Notes: a model not told the origin generated them from the letters alone. Positions 21,672-60,462 are shown, numbered from the stretch's first letter. The stretch: 64,000 nt of DNA from a virus (IMGVR_UViG_3300021963_000024); one strand, 5' to 3'. Translations and numbers: made by a program.

Positions 21672-21706
21672 AAGAAAAACCCCACTTTTGGTGGGGTCTC
21701 TTTTTT
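21672..21706. terminator. bidirectional rho-independent terminator
   Basis: Stem CCCCAC (21680-21685)/GTGGGG (21691-21696), flanked by an A-run and a T-run. Confidence 0.55.
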
Positions 21707-22051
21707 ATTTCTTTAAAAACTTCTTTCCGAAATCAATTAGGTAAGGAAGAACTTTCCAACCTACTACTAAACCAACAACGAATTGAAGGTTTAATACGAA
21801 ATCTAATACTGCCATTTTGTTTCAGTTTAGGGTTAAAAAATAAATAACCATCAGTCAACTGATATTCGAATTCGTATTAATAAGTATAAAGGAAAATAGA
21901 TTAAAGCGTTATACTGTCTACTGTCTTGCTTTATTTGCTATCTTTGCTGTTTTGCTGCTGCTGTCTTTTATAACTATCGAGGTTTTTTTCTTTTTCCTTC
22001 GTATTTAGGTAAATATATTTTTCCACATGAGTGTCAACTCATATATCAAAA

Positions 22052-22210
22052 TTGCGCTCTATAGCGAAAAAATTGCCCCCGGTATTCGCACGTATCCGAC
22101 CCGCTTTTACAATGCGCTCTCTTTTTGAGCTACACGAAATTCAGTGCGCAGTGGGGTAGAAACGGGAGGGCACAAAGAACCCGCTAGCAAGTTACTGCTA
22201 GCGGGGGCGT
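22052..22210 (+). ncRNA. GC-rich structured non-coding island (candidate sRNA), copy 1
   Basis: GC-rich patch in an AT-rich genome. Contains TGCGCA hexamers and the 10-bp hairpin CCCGCTAGCA-agttac-TGCTAGCGGG (22180-22206). Shares blocks with 26479-26710. Confidence 0.3.
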
Positions 22211-22255
22211 GAATACATTTTGTTATTCACTTTGTATATGAGTAAGCCTTTTATC

Positions 22256-22477
22256 TTAAAACCACCTTCGTATAAATTCAGGTAGTCCAGATTGAACTTC
22301 GTTGTTCCATTGTTGCATTAGTGCGTTAGCATTATCTATGCCTTCTCTCTTTTGGACCATATAACCTATCTTCATATCCTTACACCATTGTTGAAAGTTA
22401 GTGTCTGCCATTGTAGTTTCTCTTTCTTTCTCTATGGTAGTAAGTCTATCTATTGTTATGTTCTCTATTGTATTCAT
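22256..22477 (-). CDS. hypothetical protein
   Basis: 73 aa ORF. Confidence 0.35.
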   Translation of the reverse strand: MNTIENITIDRLTTIEKERETTMADTNFQQWCKDMKIGYMVQKREGIDNANALMQQWNNEVQSGLPEFIRRWF

Positions 22478-24595: not shown

Positions 24596-24913
24596 TTAAT
24601 GTGTACTATTTAGTTCGTAATTAAATTCTTTTAACAATTCCGTTTCGATTTGGTGAGCTAATGCTTTACCCCTTACTACGTCAACGATAAACAATTCGTA
24701 AACTTCAGGATCATTCTCACGCATATCAATATACAATGCCCATTGCTTTTTCTCTTTACGGGCTCTGCTCTGGTGTTTTAAGAAACGCAAGTGAGCAGAA
24801 TAATGAAACCTACGTCCAATTGCGGCAGTTATACCGATATACGATTTGCCGTTTGATGTATTCACAATTTCGTATATAACGTGGTTTCTATCTGACCTTT
24901 TCTTTCTACTCAT
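24596..24913 (-). CDS. GIY-YIG domain protein
   Basis: VIYEIVNTSNGKSYIGIT...R spacing matches a GIY-YIG nuclease motif. 105 aa. Confidence 0.5.
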   Translation of the reverse strand: MSRKKRSDRNHVIYEIVNTSNGKSYIGITAAIGRRFHYSAHLRFLKHQSRARKEKKQWALYIDMRENDPEVYELFIVDVVRGKALAHQIETELLKEFNYELNSTH

Positions 24914-26071: not shown

Positions 26072-26195
26072 ATATTACAAATTTTTTATATACCTTGTCC
26101 GATATTGGAACTTTACCCTGTAAAGATACGGCAAATTTTAGGGACCACCAAATAATTTGAAAAAAAAGTTTATTGACAATCAACGAGTTATAAAA
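26072..26195 (-). repeat. ~120-bp upstream element, copy 1 (late-promoter-like TATATAAAA plus palindrome CTTTACcctGTAAAG plus operator)
   Basis: About 85% identical to 51518-51640 by eye. Both copies sit immediately upstream of the ATG of a minus-strand gene. Confidence 0.5.
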
Positions 26196-26445
26196 CCGAT
26201 ATATTTCCGCCGGCATAACTGATTGATTGTCAATAAAGAATTTTTGAAAACATAACTCGTTGACAATCAATTAGTTACGAAATTTCTATTTAACATAATA
26301 TCAATTATTAGTTTTTTTCGGGTTTTTCTTGCGTAAAGCACTGACAATCAATTACTTCCCTATTTAACATAATATATTATATAGGACACTGGCAACTAAC
26401 TGATAATCAACAAGTTATGCAACTCATTGAAAATCAATCAATTAT
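26173..26445. promoter_or_regulatory. cluster of six palindromic operator repeats (consensus ATAACT-nn-TTGA-nnn-TCAA-nn-AGTTAT)
   Basis: Copies at 26173-26191, 26215-26233 (inverted), 26252-26278 (full 27-bp palindrome), 26341-26357, 26397-26418 and 26427-26445. Confidence 0.6.
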
Positions 26446-26478
26446 ATAAAGGTTTTGTTAGATATTATTTAAAAGAGA

Positions 26479-26710
26479 CACGGTGCGAAATAAAAATTAT
26501 CTAATGAAACGCAGACCAGGCTTATATTTGGCAATGTGGAATATTTTTCGTATCTTCAGGAAACCCGTTACAGGTCTGCGTTTCATCGCACGGACCACAA
26601 TAGCTAAATTAATTTCACTTTGCGCAACTCACCTAACTAATCGGGACTAACTCTGCGCATCCCCTTTCACCATTTTTGTATTGCCGGGAAAAACATTGCG
26701 CAGTGTGAAC
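26479..26710 (+). ncRNA. GC-rich structured non-coding island (candidate sRNA), copy 2, with embedded plus-strand promoter-like motif
   Basis: 14-bp inverted repeat ATGAAACGCAGACC (26504-26517)/GGTCTGCGTTTCAT (26573-26586) encloses TTGGCA-N17-TATCTT (26528-26556). Downstream hairpin GCGCA...TGCGC and TGCGCAGTG block. Confidence 0.3.
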
Positions 26711-26715
26711 GCAGG

Positions 26716-26880
26716 TGGGATATTTCAGTTTATAGTGATACACTTTTATAGTAATTTGTTTTCTTTGTAGTGTGTAAGTATGTAAGTAAATTATTTTGAC
26801 ACATTAAATTTTTACCACTCTTTAACACAATTTACCACTTTTACCCACAAATTAACACTACATTATTTATTTTGACACTG
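26716..26880. repeat. iteron-like short direct repeats (TTTACCAC x3, TTTTGACAC x2) in AT-rich spacer
   Basis: Visible direct repeats within the 600-bp non-coding stretch 26270-26866. Confidence 0.35.
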
Positions 26881-51517: not shown

Positions 51518-51640
51518 ATTAATAAAATTTTATATATATCTCCAATATTGGAAACTTTACCCTGTAAAGATACGAAATTTTCCCGAACTGGCCAAATAAT
51601 TTGAAAAAATTGTTCATTGACAATCAACGAGTTATGAAAT
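51518..51640 (-). repeat. ~120-bp upstream element, copy 2
   Basis: Shares caatattggaaactttaccctgtaaagatacg...ccaaataatttgaaaaaa...ttgacaatcaacgagttat with 26072-26195. Confidence 0.5.
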
Positions 51641-51742
51641 ACCCTATAAAACCAAAAGCATAAGTCATTGATTGTCAATAAAGAATTTTCTCATTGATAA
51701 TCAACGACTTATGCGTAACCCATTGAGGGTCAATTAGTTATG
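51617..51742. promoter_or_regulatory. cluster of four palindromic operator repeats
   Basis: 51617-51635, 51668-51678 (inverted), 51694-51712 and 51730-51742. Confidence 0.55.
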
Positions 51743-57962: not shown

Positions 57963-58031
57963 TTGATTATCAATGATTTATGTAATAAAAAAAGGGGTAA
58001 TATATACCCCTTTGATTATCAATGAGTTATG
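57963..58031. promoter_or_regulatory. operator-hairpin-operator cassette
   Basis: Operators at 57963-57982 and 58012-58031 flank the terminator hairpin AAAGGGGTA-atata-TACCCCTTT (57991-58013). Confidence 0.55.
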
Positions 58032-60394: not shown

Positions 60395-60462
60395 TTGAAA
60401 ATCAATCAGTTATGCAATAAAAAAAGGCTTAATATATAAGCCTTTGATTATCAATTAGTTAT
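60395..60462. promoter_or_regulatory. operator-hairpin-operator cassette
   Basis: Operators at 60395-60414 and 60444-60462 flank the hairpin AAGGCTTA-atatat-TAAGCCTT (60424-60444). Confidence 0.55.

Follow-up and report, generated by a model that had tools for sequence, protein, structure and literature searches.

A non-coding element conserved in uncultured AT-rich large phages joins a covarying, terminator-like RNA fold to a rigidly spaced and near-invariant block

Intrinsic (Rho-independent) terminators may carry an upstream A-tract that pairs to the U-tract. The locus described here resembles them in having a GC-rich hairpin with an immediate U-rich tail where a transcription unit ends, and an A-rich strand that is complementary to the tail. 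Unlike them, it presents a second covarying hairpin between the A-strand and the terminator stem, and its tail (CUUUGUGC) is nearly invariant. A further comparison is with the PeSL (promoter-early stem-loop) regulatory cassettes of T4-type phages, reportedly described by Arbiol, Comeau, Krisch and co-workers in 2010. The element shares with them a unit of stem-loop terminator plus promoter-like block that is conserved at the nucleotide level between divergent phage genes, the location at the borders of variable small-gene modules, and assembly breaks consistent with mosaic junctions. However, PeSLs occur many times per genome, whereas our element is single-copy and contains ~80 bp of extra invariant blocks between the stem-loop and the promoter.

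Phage DNA sites can also be multipartite with fixed internal spacing, as in lambda cos (cosQ-cosN-cosB) and SPP1 pac. The element is like these sites in being single-copy, in having conserved blocks at rigid distances together with A/T tracts, and in being kept among related phages. It differs from them because there is no recognised terminase gene nearby, the contig ends are not unique, and its blocks are in register with a promoter-like block and the downstream operon. Finally, the 5′ half of the element has many sequences and compensatory changes, which is the usual standard for candidate motifs and is shared with the structured-RNA families of Rfam, but none of the 4227 models of release 15 matches it.

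The window (the whole 64-kb stretch of viral DNA that was analysed) has 30.2% GC, and all its sizeable ORFs lie on the minus strand. The recognised genes encode a carbamoyltransferase, a DNA ligase, 2OG-Fe(II) oxygenases, a MoxR-type AAA protein, a Band-7 protein, endonucleases, and a radical-SAM protein. These recognisable genes are of auxiliary or host-takeover types, and the scan of window ORFs recognised no terminase and no structural gene. One window protein presented 33% identity over 97% of its length to a protein of LR756508.1, a 484-kb uncultured phage, and a protein identical to the 73-aa one encoded next to the element was also found on contigs of 0.2–1 Mb. The relatives of the window locus are IMG/VR viral contigs. 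The window thus derives from a large phage that is uncultured.

The original prediction had pointed to two GC-rich, highly structured intergenic islands in this AT-rich genome –island 1 (22052–22210) and island 2 (26479–26710)– as paralogous non-coding patches that may be sRNAs. For island 1, the compositional part of the claim is well founded: it has 52.8% GC and holds the GC-richest 150 nt of the window (0.533 at 22062; window mean 0.302, sd 0.055). Structure prediction on both strands, compared with dinucleotide shuffles, gave z-scores of −4.0 and −3.9. Island 2 is GC-rich only in relative terms (42%), since its peak of 0.473 is equalled by coding regions elsewhere in the window, and its folding was unremarkable on either strand (z −1.1 and −1.9). 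The site GCGC occurs 19 times in the 64 kb, and 6 of the 19 sites fall within the two islands. Island 1 is non-coding, as had been proposed: no open frame is shared across the family in the GC-rich part, and only 52 of 89 sequences are open in the best one.

Island 1 is one copy of a non-coding element that is conserved in many uncultured AT-rich large phages. Relatives were first found via the downstream 387-aa protein (39–65% identity), and a GC-rich island was present at the same position in all of them. The family seed was taken from the stretch of highest conservation, as the exact pattern GGTCGGATANGNNNNAATACCG (within block B; Table 1) with 17 specified bases. It was found in 37 viral contigs, all of them true homologues, and in at least 120 metagenome contigs, with ~76 true homologues among the matches listed. 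In 185,579 bacterial and archaeal species genomes the pattern had 34 matches, none with the flanking family features; for this reason, and because their number fits the chance expectation for 17 bases, we judged them to be chance matches. An attP or host-derived (tRNA fragment) origin was rejected since these prokaryotic matches fit chance and a tRNA/tmRNA search with ARAGORN gave none.

A profile HMM retrieved 128 matches at E < 1e-9 among the fetched loci, 89 of which were distinct and full-length, and the family size is given here as at least 89 distinct full-length sequences. In the window, the profile HMM had exactly one match. The covariance model had one match per locus, which in the window spans 22066–22237 on the minus strand (99.4 bits, E ~1e-17). 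The search against Rfam 15 retrieved zero matches in the window, and none over the element at E-values up to 10; in 11 relatives there was no match at the element at E-values up to 1. A known Rfam family was thus discarded, with no score at the gathering threshold, and the weak matches to Rfam leaders came solely from the hairpin after the 36-aa peptide gene (21675–21701). Neither the two islands nor a major-type element had a BLAST match among GenBank phages (50,697 records), and a literature search gave no description of such an element.

The genomic context is also conserved. In nearly all relatives the upstream neighbour is an ORF of 69–75 aa that ends 30–48 nt before the element, and across the main family the element sits between this ~73-aa ORF and the 36-aa peptide/387-aa gene set. 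Downstream, either a 36-aa peptide gene follows at ~+133 nt or a ~64-aa gene at ~+86 nt, and then genes of ~100 aa and 340–400 aa. The 36-aa peptide gene is conserved in nearly every relative; homologues are encoded ~133 nt downstream in most of them, and L012, which is the most divergent, also has one. In many relatives, a conserved ~64-aa Cys-containing protein is encoded after the 36-aa peptide gene. We found no match in Pfam, PHROG or PDB for the proteins of 73, 122, 113, and 387 aa. For the last of these, the AlphaFold model was poor (pLDDT 61.6), and its sole match was to an uncharacterised phage protein. The identity of relatives to the window is 0.76 in the 3′ half of the element, versus 0.62 and 0.56 in the flanking coding DNA. 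The whole element measures 155–226 nt, and the variation in length is almost entirely in the linker. Beyond the element, the leader from the promoter-like region to the peptide gene (21900–21995, minus strand) is A/C/G-rich and almost U-free (GAAGGAAAAAGAAAAAAACC ... AAAGACAGCAGCAGCAAAACAGCAAAGAUAGCAAAUAAAGCAAGACAG).

Table 1. Features of the two islands and their flanks (positions counted from the first nucleotide of the window)
Feature	Position	Strand	Description	Basis
Upstream 73-aa ORF	22256–22477	−	Last gene of the preceding operon; stop codon 20 nt before P1	ORF list and translation
Three-way junction	22235–22170	−	P1 around two hairpins	Covariation
P1, 5′ strand ACAAAG	22230–22235	−	Pairs with CUUUGU; 6 pairs	
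Hairpin hp1, GUGAAUA ... UAUUCAC	22209–22230	−	Five modelled pairs	
Hairpin hp2, CCCGCUAGCA GUAACU UGCUAGCGGG	22180–22205	−	GC-rich terminator-like stem	
U-rich tail UUCUUUGUGC	22170–22179	−	CUUUGU (22177–22172) is the 3′ strand of P1	Alignments
Variable linker	22147–22169	−	Highly variable in length and sequence; rich in C/A in the subfamily of the window	Alignments
Block A, CACUGAAUUUCGUGUAGCU	22128–22146	−	Conserved; U, C, and UGU invariant	Alignments
Spacer	22104–22127	−	Fixed length, variable sequence, A-tracts	Block distances
Block B, CGGGUCGGAUACGUGCGAAUACCGGGGGC	22075–22103	−	Invariant half-blocks GGUCGGAUA and AAUACCG, 6-nt variable centre; single copy in window	
AA + T6 tract	22067–22074	−	Conserved; no competent hairpin before it	Alignments
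Block C, TTTTGATATATGAGTTGACACTCATGTGG	22023–22051	−	Promoter/operator-like; palindrome ATGAGT-TGAC-ACTCAT	
TATATTTACCTAA box (TTTACCTAA)	22004–22017	−	Conserved as TTTAC(C/T)TAA	Alignment
36-aa hydrophobic peptide gene, MAVLDFVLNLQFVVGLVVGWKVLPYLIDFGKKFLKK	21705–21815	−	First gene after the element	
Canonical intrinsic terminator	21675–21701	−	After the 36-aa peptide gene	Terminator scan
Island 2 start: conserved AUAUCCCACC, small hairpin, U-run	26697–26723	−	Weak terminator (predicted) of the preceding operon	
Island 2 GC-rich body	26587–26696		Length and sequence vary among relatives	Alignment of 15 homologous regions
Inverted-repeat arms (26504–26517, 26573–26586)	26504–26586		Around TTGGCA-N17-TATCTT (26528–26556, plus strand)	
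Six TTGATTNTCAA palindromes and two ATATTATGTTAAATAG boxes	26173–26437		Promoter/operator-like region of the operon ending at island 1	

Island 2 is a different, non-homologous regulatory region, which heads the 4.6-kb operon that ends at island 1. It lies in a 680-bp gap (26100–26780) that is conserved in at least 14 relatives, ~4.4–5.3 kb upstream of island 1. The window has only two exact GGTSGGATA sites, and one of them is the 9-mer GGTGGGATA on the plus strand of the segment that starts the island. In the subfamily of the window, the GC-rich body carries repeats of GGTGAGT and of TGCGCAG. The 14-bp inverted repeat (ATGAAACGCAGACC/GGTCTGCGTTTCAT) that had been predicted around a promoter-like motif was located exactly where expected, and encloses TTGGCA-N17-TATCTT. 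In 11 of 15 relatives the motif is retained and its spacer keeps the length of 17 bp, but the repeat is not conserved across the relatives aligned. An invertible promoter was discarded because the repeat is not conserved though the enclosed motif is, the arms are 55 bp apart, and no recombinase was found. The motif is antisense to all genes. From its sequence, it could drive a short plus-strand transcript across the GC-rich body.

The 11-bp palindrome TTGATTNTCAA recurs in exact copies that cluster in four intergenic gaps (26173–26437, 51617–51704, 57963–58022, and 60395–60454), often paired 49–51 bp apart, and they are conserved in relatives; they are probably an operator or promoter class of the phage. 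The operon between the islands also encodes a 105-aa protein with a GIY-YIG nuclease domain (24596–24913, minus strand; Pfam E 2.6e-6).

Back in island 1, the 5′ half of the element is a folded RNA, as demonstrated by covariation. All six pairs of P1 show double-sided changes in the family (94% of cells paired). In hp1, compensatory changes (UA/CG/AU/GC) were seen at 5 of the 5 modelled pairs (89% of cells paired), and the stem sequence varies among subfamilies. In hp2, they affected both sides of 7 of 9 pairs, with 96% of cells paired and 58 G-U versus 2 A-C cells. The stems of different subfamilies are plainly different (CCGAUAGC/GCUAUCGG, CCCGCUAGC/GCUAGCGGG, and CCCGUUGC/GCAACGGG). We counted pairs on a model-based alignment of 86 distinct sequences for P1, hp1, and hp2 together, using as controls the same helices with their 3′ partners slid by 1–3 columns. 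Standard pairs filled 93.2% of the cells versus 35–47% in the slid controls, a percentage that is somewhat inflated since the alignment was fitted to the structure under test. Changes on both sides were present at 19 pairs. The covariation score was 0.276 versus 0.03–0.07 in the slid controls, and none of 500 shuffles attained the observed values. Across the 5′ half, G-U cells exceeded A-C cells (88 versus 15), which indicates that the fold forms as RNA of the gene strand and not of the opposite strand.

Alignment mattered for these results. RNAalifold on raw MAFFT alignments found almost no structure because the hairpins were misaligned, and on the raw alignment the mutual information was swamped by the subfamily signal. 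Conservation in relatives, which had been proposed as a check, was confirmed for island 1 with compensatory changes in its 5′ half. The covarying helices are terminator-like hairpins that lie partly beyond the island as it was originally delimited (22209–22235). The long perfect stem of the original prediction (CCCGCTAGCA/TGCTAGCGGG) is there, 10 bp long, at 22180–22205, and appears to be one hairpin of this terminator-like fold; the U-rich stretch said to follow it is on the minus strand (TTCTTTGTG) and not on the plus strand.

Regarding function, hp2 has a G+C-rich hairpin and an immediate U-rich tract at the 3′ end of the unit, on the transcribed strand, as intrinsic terminators do. A terminator scan scored it with 11 pairs, 7 of them G-C, and the tail TTCTTTGTGC. 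The last UGC of the tail segment (22170–22179) is invariant. The 20 nt that separate the stop codon of the 73-aa gene from P1 in the window leave no room for a separate promoter. At the same position, the divergent relatives L103, L138, L070, and L148 have a canonical A-tract/hairpin/U-tract terminator and L012 has a hairpin plus U-tract, and in these five loci (A/G)UGC comes after the terminator. From this anatomy and position, the role of the 5′ half is most likely termination and 3′-end formation. The end of the transcript of the upstream operon would fold into a three-way junction in which the A-rich ACAAAG and the U-rich CUUUGU pair around the two hairpins, and hp2 with the tail UUCUUUGUG would act as intrinsic terminator and provide a stable 3′ end.

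The 3′ half is organised in another way. Blocks A and B (22146–22075) comprise ~70 nt with 25 near-invariant bases, and the distances between the conserved blocks are rigid: 33 nt from TGT of block A to block B in 84 of 88 sequences, 29 nt in nearly every member when counted from AGCU of the same block, and 30 nt from block B to the start of block C in 80 of 89. The distance from the blocks back to the terminator is widely variable. About 15 variable nt separate the T-tract from block C, and the latter has two sequence variants in the family. The conserved TTTAC(C/T)TAA box (22004–22017) is a candidate for the core promoter or start region of the downstream operon. A simple consensus scan found no sigma-70 type site on the minus strand of the island-1 promoter region, and block C showed no convincing sigma-70 or Bacteroidota-type −35/−10 pair.

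Pairing was assessed throughout this half, and no helix within blocks A and B passed the covariation test. No hairpin is conserved in the 29-nt spacer (mean z −0.57, median −0.15). An AGUU/AGCU helix around the UUCGUGU loop of block A was discarded because 48 cells are unpaired at one pair; a helix closing blocks A and B, because their own flanks gave −6.6 and mismatched flanks −6.5 kcal/mol; and pairing of the UUCGU loop with GCGAA, on reading of the alignment. The small hairpin of block B never varies and is therefore uninformative. A structured ncRNA over the GC-rich core was rejected since covariation is confined to P1, hp1, and hp2, with none in blocks A and B. A riboswitch or attenuator was rejected as well, because the invariant part lacks supported helices and a promoter-like block intervenes before the gene. 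Block B is unique in the window, and this single copy rules it out as a repeated phage-polymerase promoter. No competent hairpin lies ahead of the U-tract (22067–22072), and before P1 there is no space for a promoter in the window.

Fixed spacing with free spacer sequence is the look of multipartite protein-DNA sites, and it is unusual for RNA loops. Together with the register with the promoter-like block, it led us to read the 3′ half as a DNA-level control region, so that 22146–22067 would control the downstream operon. For the GC-rich core of island 1, the DNA-level role offered as a fallback in the original prediction is thus a better fit than a role as RNA. Three divergent relatives that are close to each other, L103, L109, and L148, have an 8-bp helix (GUCACCCC/GGGGUGAC) that closes off the 3′ half immediately ahead of the U-tract, and a C-to-U change in it preserves a wobble pair, which hints at an RNA role in that lineage. 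These three relatives also have two TGACA-N3-TGTCA palindromes. The divergent subtype that they form with L138 and L070 is without the three-way junction, and in L103 and L148, the subtype members examined, the downstream genes are unlike those of the main family.

Our preferred reading, to which we give about an even chance of being right, is that island 1 is an operon boundary, where an RNA terminator fold is followed by a rigidly spaced DNA control block before the next operon. Blocks A and B, the T-tract, and block C (22146–22023) would form a near-invariant array at fixed distances from the promoter-like block, and not a folded RNA. One or more putative conserved proteins most likely bind the array in the form of duplex DNA and would control the promoter of the next operon, whose products are the 36-aa membrane peptide, the 387-aa protein, and small proteins. 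On this reading the family is new and has many members, its kind (a terminator-promoter boundary) is ordinary, and its invariant block is unusual. Besides the lack of a convincing −35/−10 pair and the closing helix of L103, L109, and L148, further features count against the boundary reading: the near-invariance of the tail CUUUGUGC exceeds the needs of a terminator, and 25 invariant bases, in phages whose proteins are 40–65% identical, exceed typical operator conservation. The interpretation as two sRNAs is partly supported, and holds only for the terminator-type RNA fold: compensatory changes make part of island 1 a structured RNA, but no helix is supported in blocks A and B.

Such conservation leaves some weight for other readings. 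It is possible, although we would not lean towards it, that blocks A and B are the core of a new element class, either a protein- or ligand-binding RNA domain on the terminator tail or a replication or packaging site. The unit is single-copy per locus and kept in more than 80 distinct uncultured large phages and, if this were true, it would be more than an ordinary promoter-upstream region. We consider it unlikely that the whole stretch of 170–190 nt (22235–22067, minus strand) is one ncRNA, be it a 3′-UTR-derived or independent sRNA or a cis-acting leader, with the three-way junction as scaffold, the invariant blocks A and B, single-stranded or with tertiary structure, as the site for a conserved protein, ligand or target RNA, and the U-tract as 3′ end. 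Covariation establishes transcription and folding for the 5′ half at least, but the 3′ half has no supported pairing and lies behind a terminator, which in divergent relatives is swapped for a canonical one. The conserved U6-7 tract at the end of the element could be a 3′ end, but no competent hairpin precedes it, except that the closing helix of L103, L109, and L148 is placed ahead of it. A variable linker amid conserved scaffolds recalls guide- or seed-type RNAs; however, spacers that are fixed in length and free in sequence are typical of DNA sites, and the 3′ half is in fixed register with the downstream promoter-like block. Folding of island 1 four standard deviations better than shuffles is consistent with an ncRNA, against the absence of any Rfam match in the window and 11 relatives.

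A single-copy DNA site outside promoter control, that is, blocks A–C as a replication origin or a pac/cos-like region, is in our view improbable. It would account for one copy per locus (unique in the 64 kb), the rigid multipartite layout with A/T tracts, and the very high conservation. Moreover, contig ends are enriched 0–300 nt downstream of block B (24 observed versus 8.8 expected; upstream there were 7, with no enrichment), and four near-identical contigs end inside island 1 (at 22241, 22170, 22153, and 22076). However, these ends are spread over 4–290 nt and do not fall at one position, and branching of the assembly graph where strains diverge after a shared block would explain them; their scatter suggests strain mosaicism after the conserved block rather than a genome end. 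Nor was any terminase, portal or replication-initiator gene recognised among the window ORFs scanned, the cumulative GC skew has no inflection at 22 kb, and there are no iterons. The idea that we regard as most improbable is that both islands are diverged copies of one element, possibly inverted, flanking the 4.6-kb operon as cassette ends or the borders of an invertible segment. The original prediction took them for paralogues with shared sequence blocks, but in direct orientation they reach a local alignment score of at most 21, when dinucleotide shuffles give 18.7 ± 2.2, and the profile HMM and covariance model of island 1 find one copy each and do not see island 2, so the islands are not paralogues. 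What resemblance there is runs in the opposite orientation: when island 2 is taken as its reverse complement, island 1 aligns to it with a score of 26 in the window (z 3.4) and, in the relative L133, with a score of 39 over ~60 nt (shuffles 17 ± 2, z ~10). The only two exact GGTSGGATA sites in the 64 kb, at 22093–22101 (minus) and 26714–26722 (plus), lie on opposite strands in conserved positions of the two islands, with ~0.8 sites expected by chance in the window as estimated from base composition, and GCGC is clustered in both. Against this, 8 of the 10 relatives tested show nothing in either orientation, a profile of the 3′-half family does no better on the island-2 family than shuffled controls, and there is no recombinase nearby, only the GIY-YIG nuclease. 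The resemblance between the islands is inverted and limited to some lineages.

Through this analysis, a guess of an sRNA in two copies has become an element that is defined across a family, with exact limits and with separate tasks for its halves that can be tested. The element is new to Rfam 15 and to the GenBank phages searched, with at least 89 distinct sequences. A three-way-junction terminator supported by covariation is an unusual form of terminator, and it could join the collections of RNA motifs. Nearly all the genes that neighbour the element in this clade of large freshwater and marine phages have no function assigned, and the invariant block gives a handle for the regulator, the origin or the packaging machinery of the clade. 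Even if it were only a terminator-promoter junction, the element would be a useful landmark in these phages, both for the structure of operons and for breaks in assemblies.
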